From the NCBI RefSeq assembly GCF_058153355.1, contig NZ_CM177019.1: a DNA stretch of 64,000 nt; one strand, given 5' to 3'. The notes below the pieces were generated by a model. It ran no database searches. It was not told the origin of the DNA and worked only from the letters and a program-made list of their open reading frames with translations. The translations under genes and the position numbers were made by a program. The first letter of the stretch is position 1. Each line of letters starts with the position of its first letter. Below, piece after piece: positions 37,129 through 53,262 of this stretch.

Positions 37129-37251
37129 TGCTGTGGAAAAGCGTCGGCACTGCTTTTGTTGCAGCAAACTTGCGTTTTTTGTGAGGGTCACACTCTATAG
37201 CGGCAGTTTATGGTACAAAGTATCAATCTTCTTCGAACCAGTGATACTCCC

Positions 37252-38115
37252 ATGGCTTATAGCATCGATATCATCTCCTGTATTACCGAACGGTTTATGG
37301 CGTTAACCGCCACTGAAAAGCGTATCGCACAATTTATTCTTGATGACGTCTCTGCCGCAGTAGAGTTGCCAATTGCTGAGCTGGCACGGTTAACGCAAAC
37401 CAGTCAGGCGTCGGTGACGCGTTTTGCCCGTGCTCTGGGGTGCAAAGATGTCCGCGAGTTGAAAGTCAAACTGGCGCAGTCACTGGCTGTCGGGCAGCGG
37501 TTTATTCTCGATGTACCGGATCTTGACGGTGTTCAGGGGATCTACGAAGCGATTATTAGCGTGCTGGAAACGCATCGTCGTTCGCTGGATATGAATGCCA
37601 TCAGCCAGGCTGTAAGCTGGTTAAGTCAGGCGCGGCAAATTCTTGCGTTAGGAACTGGCGGCGGTTCCACTATCTGTTCACAGGAGATTCAGTACCGTTT
37701 ATTCCGTCTGGGGCTACCGGTGGTCAGTCAGAATGATGCCCTGATGATGAGAATGATGTGCTCGGCAGTGATGCCGCAGGATGTGGTGATTGTGCTGTCG
37801 CTGGGCGGTTATACACCGGAAATCATCGAAAGTGCGGCAATCGCCCGTCAGTATGGCGCGCGTGTTATTGCCATTACGCCAGCACAAACACCGCTGGCAG
37901 AACAGGTAGATCTGGTATTGCCGTTACTGGTTCAGGAGAGTGATTACATTTTTAAGCCCACCCCTTCCCGCTACGCGATGTTAGCCATGGTCGATGTACT
38001 GGCAACAGAACTGGCAATGGCAAATAAAGCGCAGGCGAAAGATCGCCTGCGGCGGATAAAACTGGTGTTAGACAGCCACCGTGGGGGCGCTAACCGCCAG
38101 CCACTTGGCGATTAG
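37252..38115 (+). CDS. RpiR/MurR-family transcriptional regulator (HTH + SIS domain)
   Basis: N-terminal HTH region and C-terminal SIS-like region; start at MAYSID assumed. Confidence 0.7.
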   Translation: MAYSIDIISCITERFMALTATEKRIAQFILDDVSAAVELPIAELARLTQTSQASVTRFARALGCKDVRELKVKLAQSLAVGQRFILDVPDLDGVQGIYEAIISVLETHRRSLDMNAISQAVSWLSQARQILALGTGGGSTICSQEIQYRLFRLGLPVVSQNDALMMRMMCSAVMPQDVVIVLSLGGYTPEIIESAAIARQYGARVIAITPAQTPLAEQVDLVLPLLVQESDYIFKPTPSRYAMLAMVDVLATELAMANKAQAKDRLRRIKLVLDSHRGGANRQPLGD

Positions 38116-38124
38116 CATTGTCGG

Positions 38125-39594
38125 TTATGCTTCTTCAGGTTTGGTGATCACGACACTCTGGTTTTCACGCTCATTGGTGATAATAGCCAAAGCTTCTTCC
38201 CGGCTGACCTGACTTGCTGGCGTTACCAACGTCACCAGTACGCCAGCGACCAGGCTGCCCAGCACTGACGGAATACACGGGTTACCCCAGTAAGCCAGCC
38301 AGTCGGCATTCATCAGCACCACAATTGACATCACCATACCGCTCACTAACGCCGCCAGCGCGCCCTGCCAGTTAAAGCGTAGCCAGAAGCGACCGAGAAT
38401 CGAGCAGATAAACAGCCCGGACATCAGCATCGAAATCATTTTGGTAATGTAGCTGATGATGTCATTAGAGGTCAGAGCAAAGACCAGCGCCAGGCCAATA
38501 ACAAAGGTCAACATCCAGCGTGAGTAAGTAATGGCCTTGTCCTCCGGCGGCATTCTGCCGGTAATCATGGTGTAGACGTCGCGCATCATAATCGCCACCG
38601 CCGCGATGGCATCGGAGCTGGCGGAAGACATGGTGGCTGAAAGCCCGGCAATCAGCACCACCAGCCCAAGAATGGCAGGTAAGAAACTGGTCGCGAACAA
38701 GAAGGCGTAGTTGCTGTTTTCCAGATTTGGGTTCATGGTGAACGCCGCCATGCCGATAATGGCAGGCAGAATCGAGAAGAACAGATACAACACGCCAGTA
38801 ATAACAAATGAACGCCGTACAGAGGGAACGTCTTTTCCCGAGTAAATACGCTGGCGATAAGACGGTGTTGCCAGCACACCTACGCCAATAACCAGTGCCA
38901 GCGAAAGCGCAGGCAGCACGCCCATTTTATCAATCGCAAACAGGCTCATCGCTTTTGGGTCCATCGCCTGCTCAATCGCACTCCAGCCGCCAACGTGAAC
39001 AACGGCAAGAATAGCCATTAATATAAAGCCAAAGAACAGAATTAGGGCCTGAATAGTATCTGTCCACACTACCGCCGAATAACCGCCGATAATAACGTAA
39101 ATCGCAAAGGCCAAAGCGATAATTAATTTTGCTACAGTAAGATCAATACCCGTCGCCCAGGCAAGATACATACTGCCACCTAATATATGCGCTCCCAGCC
39201 AGCCAATAGAGGCAATAAATATCATCAGGCCGACAATATTTTTAATTAAATGGCTGCCGCCAGTATAATAAGATATTTCTTCACTCATGGTCATAAAACG
39301 TAATTTACGTACCGGTGCAAACAGCCACGCCACCAGTAATATACCTACGGCCCCACCGACGCCATAAAGCATTCCGGCCCAGCCATTGCTGTAGCCAAAG
39401 CCCACTGCGCCCATACTGGAACCCGTGCCAACCATCGTGGCAACGGTTGACCCCAGCGTCAGAAACAGCGGCAGCGAACGCCCGCCCAGCAGAAAATCTT
39501 CTCCGCTTTTCTGATTACGAGAAACAAACCAACCAAGCCAAATCATGGCGATGGCATAAATAATAAAGCCGACTAAAAAGATATGACTGTTCAT
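38125..39594 (-). CDS. Sodium:solute symporter family transporter
   Basis: 489-aa polytopic membrane ORF with SSF-like N-terminus. Confidence 0.7.
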   Translation of the reverse strand: MNSHIFLVGFIIYAIAMIWLGWFVSRNQKSGEDFLLGGRSLPLFLTLGSTVATMVGTGSSMGAVGFGYSNGWAGMLYGVGGAVGILLVAWLFAPVRKLRFMTMSEEISYYTGGSHLIKNIVGLMIFIASIGWLGAHILGGSMYLAWATGIDLTVAKLIIALAFAIYVIIGGYSAVVWTDTIQALILFFGFILMAILAVVHVGGWSAIEQAMDPKAMSLFAIDKMGVLPALSLALVIGVGVLATPSYRQRIYSGKDVPSVRRSFVITGVLYLFFSILPAIIGMAAFTMNPNLENSNYAFLFATSFLPAILGLVVLIAGLSATMSSASSDAIAAVAIMMRDVYTMITGRMPPEDKAITYSRWMLTFVIGLALVFALTSNDIISYITKMISMLMSGLFICSILGRFWLRFNWQGALAALVSGMVMSIVVLMNADWLAYWGNPCIPSVLGSLVAGVLVTLVTPASQVSREEALAIITNERENQSVVITKPEEA

Positions 39595-39696
39595 AATTCA
39601 CATCCTGCCAGTAGAGAGAAATTAATGTAAGAGTTCCCGGAGTGCTGAATGTATTCAGCACTCAATTGCGGTCTGTTTTTTTAATTCTTAAATTTA

Positions 39697-40092
39697 TTAG
39701 CGGGTCGCGTTATAACAGGTCACATCGACTTCGACTTTACAATCGACAACCAGATCAGCCACACAACAAATACGTGCAGGCGGATTCTCGCCAAAAAATT
39801 CTCTGAATACTTTATTAAATGACTGGAAATAGCGGGCGTCGGTCAGGATCACTTTCACGTGAACCACATCCGCCAGGCTATAACCGGCTTCAGTCATGAT
39901 GTCGACACAGTTTTGGATCGCCAGTCGTGACTGTTCAACGATTCCGCCTTCTACCACTTCACCGTTTTTCATGGGTGTTTGCCCGGAGACGTACAGCCAG
40001 CCGCCCGCCTCAACCGCCCTGGCAAAAGGCAAATGCTGCCCGCCAGTGCCTGTTCCACCTTCCGTACCGTAACGTTTAATGCTCATATTCAC
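39697..40092 (-). CDS. RidA/YjgF-family enamine/imine deaminase
   Basis: 131-aa ORF; family from recollection of RidA-type sequences. Confidence 0.65.
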   Translation of the reverse strand: MNMSIKRYGTEGGTGTGGQHLPFARAVEAGGWLYVSGQTPMKNGEVVEGGIVEQSRLAIQNCVDIMTEAGYSLADVVHVKVILTDARYFQSFNKVFREFFGENPPARICCVADLVVDCKVEVDVTCYNATR

Positions 40093-40095
40093 TCC

Positions 40096-41547
40096 TTAAT
40101 GTGAGGTCTGCCGGCGCAGGAAGCGTCCCGCACGGCCTGTAATGTGTTTATCGCGACCATAGCTCATAACGCCGTTCACCATCACCGCCTCAATGCCATC
40201 TGCCGGGCGTTTGGGATCAGAAAAGCTGGCAACATCACGAATGGTTTGTGGATCGAACAACACCAGGTCCGCAAAATAGCCAACTTTCACCAGTCCACGC
40301 TGGGGCAGGCGAAAACGGCTGGCAGAAAGCCCGGTCATTTTGTGGATAGCCGTGGTCAGTGGGAATAAGCCTTCATCACGGCAATAGTGGCCCAGCACGC
40401 GAGGGAAGGCGCCCCATAAACGTGGATGCGGCATGGGATCATTGGGCAGGCCGTCAGAGCCAATCATACTGACCGGATAACTCAACACTCGGCGGACGTC
40501 GCGCTCGTCCATGTTGTAATAGATAGCCCCGGCAGGCATTAGCAGCTTCGCGGCCTCCAGCATACTCATCTGCCAGTCGATGGCGATTTGCGCCAGTGTT
40601 TTCCCGGCCTGCTGCGGATGTGTTTGTGACCAGGTGATCACAATATCGAATTCGTCGGTGACTTGTTTGAGATCCAGCGTTGAAGAGCTGGCTGAGTAAG
40701 GGTAGACATCGCAGCCAATTTCCTGGTGTTGACGCATTTGGTCAAAAAAAGCCAATGTTTCTTTTGTCCGCCCCCAGTTTTTCGCCCCGGCGCATTTATG
40801 GTGGGAAACCACGATAGGCACTTTGCCATGACGCCCAATACGAAACGCCTCATCCAGGGCATCGAGAATCGGTTCAAATTCAGAACGCAGATGGGTGGTA
40901 TAAACGCCCTTCTCACCGGCTAATTCTTCCGCCAGCGCCATGACTTCTTCGGTAGTCGCCTGAAATGCCGTTGCATAGGCCAGCCCGGAACTTAACCCCA
41001 GCGCCCCCTGACTCAACGCCAGACGTAAGTCGGCACGCATAGCGGCAATTTCATCCACCGTCGCCGGGCGAAACAGGTCGTCCATATGGTTATTACGCAG
41101 CGCCGTATGACCAATCAGCGTGCCAACGTTCAGTGACGGCCTGGCTGCTTCCACTGCCTGGGCATAGCTTTCAACGGTGGGATAAATAAAGTGCTCTGCT
41201 TCCCCCAACAGATTCATCGGGTCAGGAACTTCACCTTTCATTTTCGCCGACGCCGCACTAATCCCGCAGTTACCGACAATCACCGTAGTGATCCCCTGGC
41301 TGATCTTTGGCAGATATTCCGGGATGCGAATAACGTTGATATCGTCATGGGTATGAACGTCGATAAACCCTGGTGCCAGCACCCGCCCTTCCCCGTCAAT
41401 GACCTGCTGCGCCGTAACGTTAAGCGCAGGGGCAATATCGACAATCCGATCACCTGTTATTGCCACGTCACCGCGAAATTCAGGGCCGCCGCTACCGTCG
41501 ATAACGGTCACATTTTTGATTAACCAGTCAACCTGCATGTTCGTCAC
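40096..41547 (-). CDS. N-acyl-D-amino-acid deacylase (D-aminoacylase, amidohydrolase superfamily)
   Basis: GFIDVHTHDD metal-binding motif near N-terminus; 483 aa. Confidence 0.7.
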   Translation of the reverse strand: MTNMQVDWLIKNVTVIDGSGGPEFRGDVAITGDRIVDIAPALNVTAQQVIDGEGRVLAPGFIDVHTHDDINVIRIPEYLPKISQGITTVIVGNCGISAASAKMKGEVPDPMNLLGEAEHFIYPTVESYAQAVEAARPSLNVGTLIGHTALRNNHMDDLFRPATVDEIAAMRADLRLALSQGALGLSSGLAYATAFQATTEEVMALAEELAGEKGVYTTHLRSEFEPILDALDEAFRIGRHGKVPIVVSHHKCAGAKNWGRTKETLAFFDQMRQHQEIGCDVYPYSASSSTLDLKQVTDEFDIVITWSQTHPQQAGKTLAQIAIDWQMSMLEAAKLLMPAGAIYYNMDERDVRRVLSYPVSMIGSDGLPNDPMPHPRLWGAFPRVLGHYCRDEGLFPLTTAIHKMTGLSASRFRLPQRGLVKVGYFADLVLFDPQTIRDVASFSDPKRPADGIEAVMVNGVMSYGRDKHITGRAGRFLRRQTSH

Positions 41548-41671
41548 TCCATTTCTGCAATGGTGACAAGTTAACCATTTACAAGGACGAAAAACAGTGG
41601 AAAACTACGCAAAACCCAGATGATTTTATGATACTTTTATTCATAAACTATAAGATAAATAAACTAAATAT

Positions 41672-41698
41672 TTATATTTCATTTAGTTACAAATGATA
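41672..41698. promoter_or_regulatory. Inverted repeat AACTAAAT-N11-ATTTAGTT in divergent promoter region, candidate regulator binding site
   Basis: Perfect 8-bp inverted repeat seen in sequence between the divergent D-aminoacylase and DSD1 genes. Confidence 0.3.
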
Positions 41699-41738
41699 CC
41701 CATATCCGATACGGTGAAAAACTTAAAAGGTAAATGTT

Positions 41739-42959
41739 ATGAAATACCACTCAGAACCTCTGGTTCCCCATAAATCGGCCCTGATGCAAATGCCCGCAAA
41801 TCTCCTTGCCGAAGATGTCTGTTTACCTGCCGCGATCATTAAAAAGCAGGCCCTGGAGAACAACATTACGTGGATGCAACGCTACGCTGACGCGCGCGGC
41901 GTTTCACTGGCACCGCACGGTAAAACCACCATGACGCCGTGGATTTTTCAGGCGCAGCAGGCGGCAGGCGCCTGGGCAATAGGTGTCGGTAGCGCATGGC
42001 AGGCTGGTGCGGCAATGGCGAGCGGTATTCAGCGTGTGCTGATGGTTAACCAGTTGATCGGCAAGGCAAATATGCAGTTGATTGCCCGGTTGCAACGACA
42101 TTACCCGACGGTCGATTTTATCTGCTGTATCGACAGCATTGAGAACGCCCGCGCTTTGTCTGCCTTTTTTGCCAGTCAGCAACAGACACTGAACGTGATG
42201 ATTGAGCTGGGTGTTCCCGGCGGACGCTGTGGTTGCCGCTCAACGGATGCAGCACTGGCACTGGCTAAACAGGCGGCCCAATTACCAGGGCTACGTCTGC
42301 GCGGGCTTGAGTTATATGAAGGTGTTTTACACGGTGACGATCCACAACCGCAGGTAGAAGCTCTGCTGCGGGATGCCGCACAACTGGCCTGTGATATGGC
42401 AAGTTTGGTTGATGGCGAGTTTATTCTCACCGGAGCAGGCACGGTCTGGTATGACGTGGTGTGCAATATCTGGCTGGCGGCAGAAAAGCCTGATAACTGC
42501 CGCATTGTTATTCGCCCTGGCTGCTACATCACTCACGACACCGGGATCTACGACGCGGCACAACAACAGTTGCTCGCCCGTGATCCTGTGGCCTGTGATC
42601 TGGCAGGCGATCTCACATCTGCGCTGGAACTGGTCGCCATGGTGCAATCGGTGCCGGAAGCTGATCGTGCGGTGGTAAATTTTGGTAAGCGTGATTGCGC
42701 CTTCGACGCCGGACTGCCGCAACCAGTCGCCCACTATCGCAACGGCAAATCACTGGCATTTGATCCACAGGCGATTCGCAGTACAGGTATTATGGATCAG
42801 CACTGCATGTTGCAACTGTCAGCTAATAGCGACGTGCAAGTGGGGGATATTCTGGTGTTTGGCACATCGCATCCGTGCCTGACCTTCGACAAATGGAAAA
42901 CGTTGTTATTGGCTGATGACGACTACAACGTACTGGCGGAATTAGACACTCTCTTCTAA
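41739..42959 (+). CDS. DSD1-family PLP enzyme (D-serine dehydratase-like / D-threonine aldolase-like; alanine-racemase-fold)
   Basis: PHGKT lysine motif near N-terminus; 406 aa. Confidence 0.6.
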   Translation: MKYHSEPLVPHKSALMQMPANLLAEDVCLPAAIIKKQALENNITWMQRYADARGVSLAPHGKTTMTPWIFQAQQAAGAWAIGVGSAWQAGAAMASGIQRVLMVNQLIGKANMQLIARLQRHYPTVDFICCIDSIENARALSAFFASQQQTLNVMIELGVPGGRCGCRSTDAALALAKQAAQLPGLRLRGLELYEGVLHGDDPQPQVEALLRDAAQLACDMASLVDGEFILTGAGTVWYDVVCNIWLAAEKPDNCRIVIRPGCYITHDTGIYDAAQQQLLARDPVACDLAGDLTSALELVAMVQSVPEADRAVVNFGKRDCAFDAGLPQPVAHYRNGKSLAFDPQAIRSTGIMDQHCMLQLSANSDVQVGDILVFGTSHPCLTFDKWKTLLLADDDYNVLAELDTLF

Positions 42960-45549: not shown

Positions 45550-45753
45550 ATGTTTGGTAACTTAGGACAGGCAAAAAAATATCTCGGCCAGGCGGCGAAG
45601 ATGTTGATTGGCATTCCAGACTACGACAACTACGTCGAGCATATGAAGACCAACCATCCCGACAAGCCGTACATGAGCTATGAAGAATTCTTCCGCGAAC
45701 GCCAGAACGCGCGCTACGGCGGCGATGGTAAAGGCGGTATGCGCTGTTGTTAA
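45550..45753 (+). CDS. yjiX: Small protein YjiX (DUF466)
   Basis: 67-aa ORF ending ...GGMRCC; synteny. Confidence 0.8.
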
Positions 45754-45763
45754 TGGAGAGAGC

Positions 45764-46720
45764 ATGAACCCGATTGCAGTTACCCTACTCACCGGTTTTT
45801 TAGGCGCAGGCAAAACCACCCTGCTGCGCCATATTCTTAATGAACAGCACGGCTACAAAATTGCCGTGATTGAAAACGAATTCGGCGAAGTCTCCGTTGA
45901 TGATCAACTGATTGGCGACCGCGCCACGCAGATCAAAACGCTGACCAACGGCTGCATCTGTTGTTCGCGCTCCAACGAGCTGGAGGACGCGCTACTCGAC
46001 CTGCTGGATAATCTCGACAAGGGCAATATTCAGTTCGACCGTCTGGTCATTGAATGCACAGGCATGGCCGATCCCGGCCCGATTATTCAGACCTTTTTCT
46101 CCCATGAGATTTTATGCCAGCGTTACCTGCTGGACGGCGTGATTGCGCTGGTGGATGCGGTACATGCCGATGAGCAGATGAACCAGTTCACCATCGCCCA
46201 GTCACAGGTTGGCTACGCCGACCGCATTCTGCTGACCAAAACCGACGTCGCAGGCGAAGCAGAAAAACTGCGTGAACGCCTGGCGCGCATCAACGCCCGC
46301 GCACCGGTCTACACCGTCACCCACGGCGACATCGATCTGGGCCTGCTGTTCAACACCAACGGTTTTATGCTGGAAGAAAACGTCGTCAGCACCAAACCGC
46401 GTTTCCACTTTATCGCGGATAAACAAAACGATATTTCGTCGATTGTGGTGGAACTGGATTACCCGGTAGATATCAGCGAAGTTTCTCGGGTGATGGAAAA
46501 CCTGCTGCTGGAATCGGCGGATAAACTGCTGCGTTACAAAGGGATGCTGTGGATTGACGGCGAACCAAATCGCCTGCTGTTCCAGGGCGTCCAGCGCCTC
46601 TACAGCGCCGACTGGGACCGCCCGTGGGGCGATGAAAAACCGCATAGCACAATGGTGTTTATCGGGATTCAGCTGCCGGAGGAAGAGATTCGGGCTGCGT
46701 TTGCGGGGTTGAGGAAGTAA
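45764..46720 (+). CDS. yjiA: CobW/P47K-family GTPase YjiA
   Basis: 318 aa from MNPIAVTLLTGFLGAGKTT (Walker A); GCICCS motif. Confidence 0.85.
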   Translation: MNPIAVTLLTGFLGAGKTTLLRHILNEQHGYKIAVIENEFGEVSVDDQLIGDRATQIKTLTNGCICCSRSNELEDALLDLLDNLDKGNIQFDRLVIECTGMADPGPIIQTFFSHEILCQRYLLDGVIALVDAVHADEQMNQFTIAQSQVGYADRILLTKTDVAGEAEKLRERLARINARAPVYTVTHGDIDLGLLFNTNGFMLEENVVSTKPRFHFIADKQNDISSIVVELDYPVDISEVSRVMENLLLESADKLLRYKGMLWIDGEPNRLLFQGVQRLYSADWDRPWGDEKPHSTMVFIGIQLPEEEIRAAFAGLRK

Positions 46721-46788: not shown

Positions 46789-48463
46789 TCAGACCAACCA
46801 AAGCTTCTTCAATTGCGTTTTCATTTTTTCATGTCTCATTTTCAGTTCAGCCAATCCCCATTCTGAAGAATTACAAACATCTTTTGTTAAATCAAAAGAG
46901 CTTTTACTATTAAGTTTCTCATAAATAGATTTCTTTTTGATAAAATCATAGTGTTGTGCTTCAGAATTTTTGGAACCACTTATGAGTGTTAAATTACCTA
47001 TTTTATGCAGCCAGTAGACATGCTCTTGAGGTTGGAATCTATTAATCCAGTATTCATTAACTAATGCTTGAGGAAGAATATGCTCAATTGTGATTCTCCC
47101 CGTATAGGTTTTAATCACGCTCTCATCTTGTTGCTCCATATCTAAGCGAAGCAAAATTGCTTTTATTAAGTTCACTTGATTCGGACGAGGCTCATATAAA
47201 TCTTCATCCAGTGCAGCTATAAAACCTGAATTATCTGCATGTTGGTTTATCTGATTTATCACAGAATCAAAAGGCATATCATTATTTATTGCTACCAGAG
47301 CTGAATAACAAACCATTTCTCTTTGGCTTTTAATTTGTTTTTTTAACCACCCATGCATATATACCTTCTCAAAGGCGGTAATAAATTGAGAAAAATCATC
47401 TAAATTAAAATCTTCTGTACGAGCCATTCGATTCATGAATGCCATAACCGGAGGAATCCACTCATCTACCCCTAAATTACTTAGCGATGCTATTTTTCGT
47501 CGTATTGAAGGGTGTTCAAAATCATTCTCTAAAATCTTAGTATAATTTTTTGCAGAATTAACCAACATCAGTGACATAGCAATAGCATCTCCATCAAATT
47601 GCTGCTGGAGATTTTCAATAAAAGCTTCAAAACCTTTTTGTAACACCCTGTCACGATCTTTTTTCTCGGAAAGCTTATGAAGAGTAAGAAATTTATCAAG
47701 CCGTCTCACTCCAACCATATCTTCAATTTGCGACCATGCTGATTCTATTTGCTCTAATTTTTTATTATGTGTAGAAGCTGATTCAAACAGTGCATTTTTT
47801 AAAAGAACTGCATTACTTAAAGGTAAACCTCGACTATTTAATACATTAAAGAGTCTAAATGATGATGCGAAATCATCTGTTTGCACAAATACGATATATA
47901 CATTTTGCAAAATATATTTAGCAAGCAACTTCAACTCATCAACAGATAACCGCAACAAATAATCTCTAATTGTTTCAGCGTTGCTAATGAATACTAAATC
48001 AGTATCCGATGGCTTTTCAGGCTTATAATCTTTAGAATCCTGCAGTATATAATATTTATAAAGATCATACTCTTTTTTTCTAACAATTAGTCTTGGTTCA
48101 TCTGTTTCATCAGAATAAACATCAATAGGTAGAACTCTTTTTTTGCAAATCATCTTTTATCCCCTGAATCGGGATGATTTTTTTTAGCTCGGAGACAATA
48201 ATACTTAACGTTGTAAGACGTTGTTGCCCATCTACAACTTCATACTGATTTTGCCCTTTATTGATACAAATCATACTCCCAATAAAATATTCATTCTCTT
48301 CTGATTGAGAGCTTTTATAAATGTCATCAATGAGTTGCTCTGCATTATCTACCGTCCAACTGTAAGGACGCTGATAAGAAGGAATAATAAACTTTTTGTT
48401 TTCAGTAAGGATATCCTGCACCTTACATTCTTTAGCTTCCATTTCATATACCCAATCAAACAA
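46789..48463 (-). pseudogene. GmrSD-like type IV restriction endonuclease (DUF262 + DUF1524), interrupted by a frameshift in an A7 tract (plus-strand T7 at 48137-48143)
   Basis: Upstream 113-aa ORF carries DUF262 motifs (YQRPYSW, DGQQRLTT); downstream 454-aa ORF carries the DUF1524 motif (IEHILPQ...IGNLTLIS); the frames join if the A7 run were A6. Confidence 0.7.
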
Positions 48464-48599: not shown

Positions 48600-48764
48600 T
48601 CACTCCACATCCTCCCTGCGTAACCCAATATCCCTCAACCGTTCATCACTCATCTGCTGTAACACGCGTCGGGTCTGCATTTGCCGCCGCCAACGCCTCA
48701 CCGCCTGCCAGAGTTGCACCAGGCCGATAAACGGCGCTTTAGCTCTGTTTTCGTGAAATACCAT
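48600..48764 (-). CDS. yjiS: Small protein YjiS (DUF1127), 54 aa
   Basis: Manual translation MVFHENRAKAPFIGLVQLWQAVRRWRRQMQTRRVLQQMSDERLRDIGLRREDVE; not in ORF track because short. Confidence 0.6.
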   Translation of the reverse strand: MVFHENRAKAPFIGLVQLWQAVRRWRRQMQTRRVLQQMSDERLRDIGLRREDVE

Positions 48765-48940: not shown

Positions 48941-50353
48941 ATGACGCGTTATCAACATCTGGCGACTCTGCTTGCCGAACGGATTGAGCAAGGGCTGTAT
49001 CGTCACGGGGAGAAATTGCCGTCGGTGCGCAGCTTAAGTCAGGAGCACGGCGTCAGTATCAGCACCGTGCAGCAGGCGTATCAGACGCTGGAGACGATGA
49101 AGCTCATCACTCCGCAGCCGCGTTCGGGTTATTTTGTCGCACAACGTAAAGCCCAGCCGCCAGTACCGCCGATGACGCGTCCGGTGCAGCGCCCGGTGGA
49201 AATTACCCAGTGGGATCAGGTGCTGGATATGCTGGAGGCGCATAGCGACAGTTCCATTGTTCCGTTAAGCAAAAGCACGCCGGATGTCGAAACGCCCAGC
49301 TTGAAACCGCTGTGGCGGGAGCTAAGCCGGGTGGTGCAGCATAATCTGCAAACCGTTCTCGGTTATGACTTGTTAGCCGGTCAGCGAGTATTGCGAGAGC
49401 AGATTGCCCGCCTGATGCTCGACAGCGGCTCGGTAGTCACCGCCGATGACATCATTATTACCAGCGGCTGCCATAACTCGATGTCGCTGGCGTTAATGGC
49501 GGTGTGTAAACCGGGCGATATTGTCGCGGTCGAATCCCCCTGTTATTACGGTTCGATGCAGATGCTGCGCGGCATGGGCGTGAAAGTGATTGAAATCCCA
49601 ACCGATCCAGAAACAGGCATCAGCGTTGAAGCGCTGGAACTGGCGCTGGAACAGTGGCCAATTAAAGGCATCATTCTGGTGCCAAACTGTAATAATCCGC
49701 TGGGATTTATTATGCCGGACGCGCGCAAACGGGCCGTTCTCTCTCTCGCTCAGCGTCATGATATTGTGATTTTTGAAGATGATGTCTATGGCGAACTGGC
49801 AACGGAGTATCCGCGCCCGCGGACCATTCATTCCTGGGATATCGACGGGCGAGTGCTGCTGTGCAGTTCGTTCAGTAAAAGCATTGCACCAGGCCTGCGC
49901 GTGGGTTGGGTCGCACCGGGGCGTTATCACGATAAACTGCTGCATATGAAATACGCCATCAGCAGCTTTAATGTGCCGTCCACGCAAATGGCGGCGGCAA
50001 CGTTTGTGCTGGAAGGTCACTATCATCGCCATATCCGGCGGATGCGGCAGAATTATCAGCGCAATTTGGCGCTTTATACCTGCTGGATACGGGAATATTT
50101 TCCCTGCGAAATCTGTATTACGCGCCCGAAAGGCGGATTTTTACTGTGGATAGAATTGCCTGAACAGGTCGATATGGTCTGCGTTGCGCGACAGCTGTAC
50201 CGCATGAAAATCCAGGTGGCGGCAGGCTCGATTTTCTCGGCTTCCGGCAAATACCGTAATTGTCTACGCATCAACTGCGCTTTACCGCTCAGCGAAACCT
50301 ATCGCGAAGCACTGAAGCAAATTGGCGAGGCCGTGTATCGGGCAATGGAATGA
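48941..50353 (+). CDS. yjiR: MocR/GntR-family regulator with aminotransferase domain
   Basis: 470-aa ORF, N-terminal GntR HTH plus aminotransferase-like domain. Confidence 0.85.
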   Translation: MTRYQHLATLLAERIEQGLYRHGEKLPSVRSLSQEHGVSISTVQQAYQTLETMKLITPQPRSGYFVAQRKAQPPVPPMTRPVQRPVEITQWDQVLDMLEAHSDSSIVPLSKSTPDVETPSLKPLWRELSRVVQHNLQTVLGYDLLAGQRVLREQIARLMLDSGSVVTADDIIITSGCHNSMSLALMAVCKPGDIVAVESPCYYGSMQMLRGMGVKVIEIPTDPETGISVEALELALEQWPIKGIILVPNCNNPLGFIMPDARKRAVLSLAQRHDIVIFEDDVYGELATEYPRPRTIHSWDIDGRVLLCSSFSKSIAPGLRVGWVAPGRYHDKLLHMKYAISSFNVPSTQMAAATFVLEGHYHRHIRRMRQNYQRNLALYTCWIREYFPCEICITRPKGGFLLWIELPEQVDMVCVARQLYRMKIQVAAGSIFSASGKYRNCLRINCALPLSETYREALKQIGEAVYRAME

Positions 50354-50595: not shown

Positions 50596-51552
50596 TTAGT
50601 ACTCGATCCATGGATCACGCTTGCTTTCAGGCAAGGGCTGATCTAATGCCTGCATTTGCTCTGCCGAAAGTCCGGTATATCGTTGTATCCATTCAGGATC
50701 GGCCCCATTCTGCAACAACAATCGGAGGAGGCTCCGTTCCCCTTCTACTTTCCCTTCTTTCCTCCCCCTCTCCCTTCCCAACAGCCATCCATCATTATGA
50801 ATTCGCTCTGCAATTGTCATTATTCGCTCCCTGTGGTGTGGCATTCGCCTGGTAAGTTCGCTGATAAACGCCTTAAAACGCGCTTCATCGCCAGTCAGTA
50901 AAATGTAATTTAACAGCGCAGTTATCTGGCTGTCATTAGCGCACCCTGTAACCAGTAATACTGCCAGTTGATCAATAAGCCCCATTAGATCGCGCTGGCG
51001 AATATGCTTTTGGATCAACTCCAACAGGGCGACTCTGCGATGCTGCACAATCTCGTCATCCGGCACGATAGTGATATCCACCAGCGGGAACGCGGCGTTA
51101 TAAAGCTTCCGTGCGGTAGTCGGGTCGGCAAATTCGTCCAGCCAGCACAAAGACCAGGGATAAGGACTACGGCTACCGTGATAAAACAGCATCGGGATGA
51201 CCAGCGGTAGCGGTCGGCGTTTATCATGTTCGATATGGCGCTGCATCACCGCCATGGAATAGCGCATCAGGCGAAAAGCCATGTGAATATCCTCACGGCT
51301 CTGATGTTCAATCACCACATAGATATAGCCATCTCCTTTACGGGTCTTTACCGACCACAGAATATCGGAATGTAGCGCCCGTAATTTTTCATCGACAAAG
51401 CTGGCGGATTCCAGTTTTAAGCTATCGAGATCGCACAGTTCACGTAAATCTATTGGTAAGTGGATCTCCATAAAATCCCGCGCGGTGTCAGGGTGGGTGA
51501 GAAAGGATTTAAATAATGCGTCATGCGGCGTACTGGTCGTGAAGTTTGTCAT
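50596..51552 (-). CDS. rpnD: Rpn-family recombination-promoting nuclease (PD-(D/E)XK, YhgA-like), apparently intact 318 aa
   Basis: N-terminal [11 protein letters not shown]...DILWSV motifs typical of Rpn/transposase_31 proteins. Confidence 0.7.
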
Positions 51553-52029
51553 GGCGATCCGTCACCTGTAGATAAGATGGCCCGACTTTAGCGACTAACA
51601 AAACCATTCTCACCCGGCTATTTTCCGTTCCCCGAGGCGCTTTCTAGGCTATTTTTGTTCCTCTGCAAACGATACATTTTTCCGGAAACAGGCTCGCGTT
51701 TTACATTTCCTGTACCCGGCAGATATTCCCCTTTCCACCGCGCTCTTTTGATTAACCGCAAATTTTAATTACACTTAAGGTGTATATTTTCTATGCAACC
51801 CATCAATTCAAGAGGTGTAATGTGCTGATGACTATTTGTAATCGTTATACATTCTGACCCGAAGTCAGAAAGTATTTCACTGTCTGTGTGTTCACAGGCA
51901 GTGTGGTTGATTACATGAAATTCAGTACATTTGCAGTCTCGTTGCCCTTCTCACCTGCCTTTCGTCATTACCGACGGTATTGAATTTCGTTTTCCCCGTT
52001 GGGGTTCTCCGGACAAGGAGTTGTTTGTT

Positions 52030-53262
52030 ATGCCACGTTTTTTTGCCCGCCATGCCGCTACGCTGTTTTTCCCGATGGCGTTGATTTTGTATGACTTTGC
52101 CGCGTACCTGTCGACGGATCTGATCCAGCCTGGGATCATTAATGTGGTCCGTGATTTTAATGCCGATGTCAGTCTGGCCCCGGCTGCCGTCAGTCTCTAT
52201 CTCGCTGGAGGCATGGCATTGCAGTGGCTGCTGGGGCCGCTTTCCGACAGGATTGGCCGCAGGCCGGTGCTGATTACCGGAGCGCTAATATTTACCCTTG
52301 CCTGCGCTGCGACAATGTTCACCACGTCTATGACACAGTTTCTTATCGCGCGTGCAATTCAGGGCACCAGTATCTGTTTTATTGCCACCGTTGGTTATGT
52401 CACGGTGCAGGAAGCGTTCGGGCAGACAAAAGGGATCAAGTTGATGGCGATTATCACCTCCATCGTACTGATTGCGCCAATTATCGGCCCGCTTTCCGGC
52501 GCAGCTCTGATGCACTTTGTGCACTGGAAAGTCCTTTTTGCCATCATTGCGATTATGGGTTTTATCTCATTTGTTGGCTTACTGCTGGCGATGCCAGAGA
52601 CAGTGAAGCGCGGCGCGGTTCCGTTTAGCGCCAAAAGCGTCTTGCGCGATTTTCGTAATGTCTTTTGCAATCGGCTGTTCCTCTTTGGCGCAGCAACCAT
52701 CTCTTTAAGCTATATCCCGATGATGAGTTGGGTGGCTGTCTCGCCGGTGATCCTTATCGATGCAGGCGGCTTAACAACTTCGCAGTTCGCCTGGACACAG
52801 GTTCCGGTGTTCGGCGCGGTGATTGTTGCGAATGCCATCGTGGCGCGTTTCGTTAAAGATCCGACCGAACCGCGGTTTATCTGGCGTGCCGTACCCATTC
52901 AACTGGTCGGCCTCTCGCTGTTGATTATCGGCAATCTGCTGTCGCCGCACGTCTGGCTGTGGTCGGTGCTGGGCACCAGTCTGTATGCTTTCGGGATTGG
53001 TTTGATTTTCCCGACCTTATTCCGCTTTACGCTGTTTTCCAATAACTTACCGAAAGGGACCGTCTCCGCATCGCTAAATATGGTGATCCTGATGGTGATG
53101 TCGGTCTCGGTCGAAATCGGCCGCTGGCTGTGGTTTAACGGCGGTCGCTTGCCGTTTCATCTGTTAGCCGTTGTGGCGGGCGTTATCGTCGTTTTCACCC
53201 TGGCGGGATTGCTCAATCGCGTGCGCCAGCATCAGGCAGCCGAGCTAGTGGAGGAGCAGTGA
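52030..53262 (+). CDS. mdtM: MFS multidrug efflux transporter MdtM
   Basis: 410 aa from MPRFFARH; 12-TM MFS. Confidence 0.8.

Follow-up and report, generated by a model that had tools for sequence, protein, structure and literature searches.

An ordinary intact rpnD gene in an Escherichia coli strain, at a locus interrupted by an amber codon in K-12

The Rpn proteins of E. coli were described as nucleases that promote recombination. Overproduction of RpnA to RpnD lowers viability, induces an SOS reporter and increases RecA-independent recombination, and RpnA itself is an endonuclease that requires Mg, is stimulated by Ca and has little preference for sequence (PMC5350276). The same study separated its activities by mutation: D11A, D63A, E82A and Q84K each lose all three in vivo phenotypes, Q84A and R94A lose recombination promotion while keeping toxicity, and D165A, in the PDDE motif, gives a hyperactive enzyme (PMC5350276). 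For rpnD, formerly yjiP, most E. coli encode a complete protein whereas K-12 has a premature stop, and a repaired gene, yjiPc, had to be synthesised for experiments (Kingston et al. 2015, PMC4498929). The repaired K-12 RpnD is a toxic protein that triggers SOS and increases RecA-independent recombination 4.5- to 5-fold (PMC4498929, PMC5350276).

More recent work has changed how these genes are understood. Within each E. coli rpn gene lie a promoter and a translation start from which a small RpnS protein, identical to the C-terminal tail, is made, and internal transcription start sites have been reported in all K-12 rpn genes (PMC10400941). RpnS binds full-length RpnL and blocks both its toxicity and its cleavage of DNA, as tested for RpnA, RpnB and RpnC (PMC10400941), and the plasmid-borne RpnP2 behaves alike once its internal start is removed; these antitoxin experiments covered RpnA, RpnB, RpnC and RpnP2, and not RpnD (Zhong et al. 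2023, PMC10400941). The tails vary between strains by four-residue repeats, and RpnC is neutralised only by an RpnS of equal repeat number (PMC10400941). RpnP2, from a plasmid of ECOR13, is the sole member with demonstrated protection against phage, acting on T-even phages and BASEL #40 at pH 8.5 or low temperature (PMC10400941). RpnD-L was undetected in MG1655 (Zhong et al. 2023, PMC10400941), as expected because of the amber codon in that gene. The initial annotation of the present locus used the label "recombination-promoting nuclease"; since 2023 the family is better described as nuclease toxins, each with an antitoxin nested in its gene, that may act in phage defence (PMC10400941).

Here we compare with these systems an rpnD gene found in a stretch of 64,000 nucleotides from contig NZ_CM177019.1 (assembly GCF_058153355.1), which we call the window and to which all coordinates refer unless stated otherwise. 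The gene and its nuclease domain lie as follows:

50596..51552, minus strand: rpnD (old name yjiP), whose full-length product is RpnD-L; from the six-frame ORF list, PF04754, TIGR01784 and orthology to K-12.
50923..51531, minus strand: Transposase_31/YhgA-like domain (residues 8-210) with a predicted PD-(D/E)XK nuclease core; from Pfam and a residue-by-residue alignment to K-12 RpnA.

The claim that the reading frame is continuous over 318 amino acids holds: a single uninterrupted frame starts with ATG and runs for 318 codons to its stop with zero internal stops, both in the six-frame list and on re-translation. The product matches PF04754 (Transposase_31, YhgA-like) over residues 8-210 and profile positions 1-202 of 203 (E 8.4e-86; 287.2 bits against a cut-off of 21), and TIGR01784 (Rpn family recombination-promoting nuclease/putative transposase) with 170.5 bits against a cut-off of 52.1. 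Both scores exceed the curated thresholds and the profile match is near-complete, which places the protein in the Rpn/YhgA-like family. It falls below the cut-off of 583 for two narrower NCBIfam equivalogs, scoring 384.4 bits with the RpnA model NF007361 and 393.8 bits with NF007418, "ISNCY family transposase"; the window protein thus belongs to the family without being RpnA or that transposase equivalog. The identical 318-residue protein is public under EGO8353191.1 and HFG3509357.1 (both Escherichia coli, named Rpn family recombination-promoting nuclease/putative transposase) and occurs in independent assemblies, while the cluster at 90% identity holds 3918 members, one of them found on at least 1000 contigs. 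This is clearly a real gene and not a chance open reading frame.

Is the encoded nuclease likely to work? In the alignment to K-12 RpnA, the residues D11, D63, E82, Q84 and R94 and the PDDE motif are identical in the window RpnD. Over codons 1-244, comparison with K-12 gives a dN/dS ratio of 0.095 and comparison with the closest allele from a complete genome gives 0.093; in the tail, the ratio relative to K-12 is 0.54. The low value of about 0.09 supports purifying selection on the nuclease domain, as would befit a working gene, and from this ratio and the retention of the residues essential in RpnA it is plausible that the copy here is functional. Structure prediction adds little resolution. 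An AlphaFold2 model built from a 26-sequence alignment has low confidence (mean pLDDT 57.3, pTM 0.39), a Foldseek search with this low-confidence model found no PDB match at E <= 0.001, the insignificant matches (e.g. TDP2 and Nocturnin) having TM scores of at most 0.24, and phmmer against PDB sequences found no relative.

The position of the gene identifies which rpn it is. In the window it is flanked by mdtM, encoding an MFS transporter (51931..53262, plus strand), and yjiR, encoding a GntR-aminotransferase fusion (48941..50353, plus strand). In NC_000913.3 the same two genes flank rpnD (b4584), annotated there as a pseudogene of 921 nt, and the flanks are collinear with K-12 at 96.6-96.7% nucleotide identity. 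At the protein level the window RpnD is 90.8% identical to the K-12 rpnD reading frame and 57% identical to RpnA. Taken together, the position between mdtM and yjiR and the highest identity, to K-12 rpnD, make the window gene the orthologue of rpnD and not of rpnA, B, C or E. The same arrangement between mdtM and yjiR is found in strain R32_14_1F and in sister assemblies. In the river-water isolate KKa019 (NZ_CP091664.1, segment 1..1521), an intact 306-codon rpnD abuts yjiN and a truncated GntR-family pseudogene, with mdtM apparently missing beside it, so the conserved flanks are not universal.

The initial annotation had described the K-12 counterpart as split into yjiP and yjiQ and had called for an alignment to the two. 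It was right in that the K-12 gene is interrupted, although the two parts are now annotated as the one pseudogene, and the alignment locates the cause at a single codon:

51241..51243, minus strand: codon 104, CAG (Gln) in the window and TAG (amber) in K-12; from the DNA alignment and translation of K-12.

This in-frame change of CAG to TAG is the sole lesion of K-12 rpnD, as both alignment and translation show, and it divides the gene into a 103-residue reading frame (the old yjiP) and a 190-residue one from a TTG start (the old yjiQ). A frameshift as the cause of the split is ruled out, the alignment showing the in-frame substitution alone. The two genes also differ in length, with 318 codons here and 306 in K-12, the C-terminal tail of the window gene carrying 36 additional in-frame nucleotides; where the window has the longer tail segment, K-12 has YIKGEQRILR. 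The K-12 gene is thus neither intact nor equal in length to that of the window. Relative to the repaired K-12 RpnD, yjiPc, the window protein shares the mdtM-yjiR locus, the PF04754 domain, the catalytic residues and an internal methionine, and it differs in having CAG naturally at codon 104, in three extra four-residue repeats and in the divergence of its last 15 residues. Between the window and K-12 (segment 8999..9919 of the K-12 sequence), dS at rpnD is about 0.23-0.30. This is above the divergence typical of E. coli core genes. Such a high value agrees with reports of raised polymorphism near the immigration control region.

Having found that the contrast with K-12 is real, we ask whether it tells us anything about the window strain. 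To do so we consider 5426 complete E. coli genomes, in 4242 of which rpnD is present, and type codon 104 by a 33-mer in which the distinguishing base (T or C) lies inside every 28-base seed word. The amber version occurs in 339 of the 5426 genomes and, among the matches listed, its carriers are laboratory strains (MG1655, C600, DH5alpha, J53, ER strains and evolved MG1655 lines). The CAG version occurs in at least 3446; the roughly 450 other genomes that bear rpnD presumably have further SNPs inside the 33-mer word. In the clinical isolates GN05505 and FDAARGOS_1290 the allele is 3 nt from that of K-12, one of the three differences being a C at nt 310, and in both the gene is annotated as an intact CDS of 306 amino acids. 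A wide natural distribution of the amber allele is ruled out, given that its listed carriers are laboratory strains while the K-12-type clinical alleles carry CAG. For the same reason, the amber codon is a derived lesion of the K-12 lineage.

Intactness of rpnD is therefore the norm for the species. The initial annotation had proposed that this strain may carry a functional copy; the contrast with K-12 stands, but it is not a property of this strain and, the K-12 interruption being a lineage-specific amber codon, intactness tells us nothing special about it. Independent inactivation outside the K-12 lineage does occur but is rare, with integrity sampled among the 4242 rpnD-bearing genomes: the rpnD of strain ES5 is annotated as "frameshifted", and matches of 944 nt are found in 2 of 60 evenly spread rpnD-bearing genomes. 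A gap-free match over all 957 nt is found in 20 of 60 such complete genomes, and the 1407 genomes in the band of 95-99% identity agree with about a third belonging to this length class. Nearly all matching places are chromosomal (4247 of 4249), with a median of one place per genome. The rpnD of the window is an ordinary, typical natural allele of a common length class, correctly named in NCBI. Publications already describe the gene, the K-12 stop, the nuclease activity of the family, its nested antitoxin and its polymorphism of four-residue repeats, so that the finding repeats what was known of K-12 and says nothing new on the window strain. What it does underline is that K-12 is the atypical strain at rpnD, probably retaining solely the short, antitoxin-like RpnD product, and that studies of RpnD or of the immigration control region are better served by a natural allele.

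Now we consider the C-terminal tail, where the published pairs encode their antitoxins. The relevant features of the window gene are:

50596..50820, minus strand: predicted nested RpnD-S gene for a putative antitoxin of 74 amino acids, in frame, with start M245; from homology to RpnA-S.
50827..50832, minus strand: Shine-Dalgarno-like AGGGAG, separated by 6 nt from the internal ATG (50820) that follows it; read from the sequence.
50731..50787, minus strand: region of four-amino-acid repeats, W256-S274; from the alignment and the lengths of homologues.
50907..50936, minus strand: sigma-70-like site (ATGACA, an 18-nt spacer, TG-TAAATT), a candidate internal promoter; from a consensus scan.

The window gene thus has, where its variable C-terminal domain begins, an in-frame internal start codon preceded by a ribosome-binding site. 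M245 aligns with M244 of RpnA, the proven start of RpnA-S, within the conserved motif MTIAER, and it is retained in every one of 26 homologues, which reach down to 59% identity. The candidate promoter, some 90 nt ahead of the internal ATG, has the same sequence in K-12; the consensus scan returned 4 such sites where shuffled sequences give 2.9 +/- 1.6, which is no enrichment. We also looked in the 242-nt spacer between rpnD and yjiR for a separate downstream small gene of the rpnS type, as ypaA is after rpnE, and saw none there: the spacer is nearly identical to that of K-12 and holds one 64-residue ORF with a GTG start, on inspection unlike an Rpn tail.

The repeats account for the length difference noted above. 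Codons 257-268 (50749..50784), absent from K-12, are three extra four-amino-acid repeats, and E. coli homologues of 306, 310, 314, 318 and 322 residues differ by such four-residue blocks following WLLG, which forms residues 12-15 of RpnD-S. The repeats begin about 12-15 residues after M245, inside the published range of 8-20 (PMC10400941). Beyond the repeats, the tail (50596..50786) also differs between strains. About 8 of 60 evenly sampled genomes (e.g. PMV-1 and an O2:K2:H1 strain) match the window gene over nt 1-766 only and continue into an unrelated tail, the rpnD of O157:H7 diverges from that of the window after nt 926, and one homologue (P0014) joins a divergent N-terminus to a tail of the window type. 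Taken together, these differences suggest that rpnD is a mosaic, recombining gene.

Drawing on the RpnA pair (PMC10400941), we can picture how the window gene would work. The two proteins share 57% amino acid identity, the catalytic residues, the internal methionine in MTIAER and the site, within the S domain's first helix, at which four-residue repeats occur; they differ in that RpnA is a paralogue and in that RpnA-S has about 49 residues and lacks the extra repeats, as compared with the 74 of the predicted RpnD-S. By this analogy, RpnD-L would be a toxic DNA endonuclease of weak specificity that induces the SOS response when overproduced. RpnD-S, translated in the same frame from M245, would dimerise with the identical C-terminal domain of RpnD-L and thereby hold it inactive, and which short form can neutralise which long form would be set by how many four-residue repeats the first helix of that domain holds. 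We infer the nuclease activity, the expression of the S form, the toxin-antitoxin relation and any role in defence from the described relatives. RpnP2 resembles the window gene in its family and in its nested L/S architecture; phage protection is a demonstrated feature of RpnP2 alone. PADLOC-DB 2.0 (2023), which apparently contains no Rpn model, had no model matching RpnD.

The neighbourhood of the gene bears on the question of defence. A 2025 review takes yjiA and yjiN as the anchors that bound the immigration control region and counts rpn among its toxin-antitoxin systems (PMC12707154). The variable defence locus that the initial annotation had placed beside rpnD can be recognised, from its gene content and that review, as the adjoining immigration control region. 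In the window, its variable part is one gene between yjiA (45680..46720) and yjiS (48600..48764):

46789..48442, minus strand: type IV restriction gene of the GmrSD family (DUF262 and DUF1524); from domain matches.

This gene replaces the mrr-hsdRMS-symE-mcrBC-yjiV-yjiT block of K-12. One extra A in a run of seven (48138-48144) splits it into reading frames of 106 and 454 residues, where the sister assembly GCA_015332025.1 has six and an intact gene for 550 amino acids; an independent assembly of read set SRR31441161 has seven As, as in the window. The seven-A tract may reflect a sequencing error in the homopolymer, phase variation or a true inactivation of the gene. As it stands in the window, the strain has an intact rpnD nuclease gene and a broken classical restriction gene next to it.

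How, then, should the window gene be read? We are highly confident that it is an ordinary intact chromosomal rpnD, a member of the Rpn (PF04754) PD-(D/E)XK family that probably encodes two products, a toxin and its antitoxin. A gene that is whole in sequence may all the same be silent or decaying, or be kept for its antitoxin-like short product alone. The L forms of Rpn proteins are expressed at low levels, several being undetectable under laboratory conditions (PMC10400941), K-12 tolerates the loss of RpnD-L, frameshifted rpnD genes exist in other lineages, and in this very strain the adjoining defence gene is frameshifted, all of which speak for such a reading. Against it, the window gene has no stop or frameshift and keeps every catalytic residue tested, its nuclease domain evolves at a dN/dS of about 0.09, and the identical protein recurs in independent assemblies, and so we regard silence or decay as improbable. 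The names attached to the family invite a different reading, in which rpnD would be a transposase or mobile element inserted beside a variable locus: the Pfam entry is called Transposase_31, and the best NCBIfam match by E-value is the "ISNCY family transposase". That match, however, lies far under its equivalog cut-off (393.8 bits against 583), K-12, R32_14_1F and the sister assemblies all have the gene in the same mdtM-yjiR interval, and its matching places are almost exclusively chromosomal, at a median of one per genome. Furthermore, Rpn proteins come without terminal inverted repeats or target-site duplications, and it has been concluded that they are not transposases (Zhong et al., PMC10400941). 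We consider the mobile-element reading very improbable indeed.

A more ambitious version of the toxin-antitoxin reading can also be stated. In it, wild-type chromosomal RpnD would be an active defence or exclusion factor whose repeat alleles (306 to 322 amino acids) act as compatibility classes and whose nuclease helps the RecA-independent replacement of the adjacent immigration control region, a role that screens in K-12 would have missed. In the window strain, the whole four-repeat RpnD might then make up for the frameshifted GmrSD gene beside it. We think this reading unlikely.

The source of the window is E. coli. It matches a contig from an assembly of the E. coli read set SRR31441161 at 100% identity over 18 kb, and the sister assembly GCA_015332025.1 at 99.93%; in collinear blocks its identity is 96.6-97.9% with K-12 and 97.8% with strain R32_14_1F. 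The best matches among complete genomes, 98.3% for rpnD and 96.3% over 21 kb, had hinted at a cryptic Escherichia clade, which the identities to E. coli assemblies rule out; the 96.3% figure is as low as it is because pieces were joined across the variable locus.

Elsewhere in the window we note two further loci. Between tsr and btsT (37210..42959) lies a four-gene metabolic set, comprising an RpiR/SIS regulator, a sodium:solute symporter, an Amidohydro_3 enzyme and an alanine-racemase-N/D-serine-dehydratase-like enzyme, for which K-12 has no match in the interval. Near position 58756, within an ORF of 705 amino acids (57198..59315, plus strand) whose counterpart in R32_14_1F is annotated as a pentapeptide-repeat protein, the 9-nt tandem unit CAGATGTTG is present in one copy fewer than in the sister assembly, and since the unit of nine lies within that gene, this is an in-frame polymorphism of repeat number.
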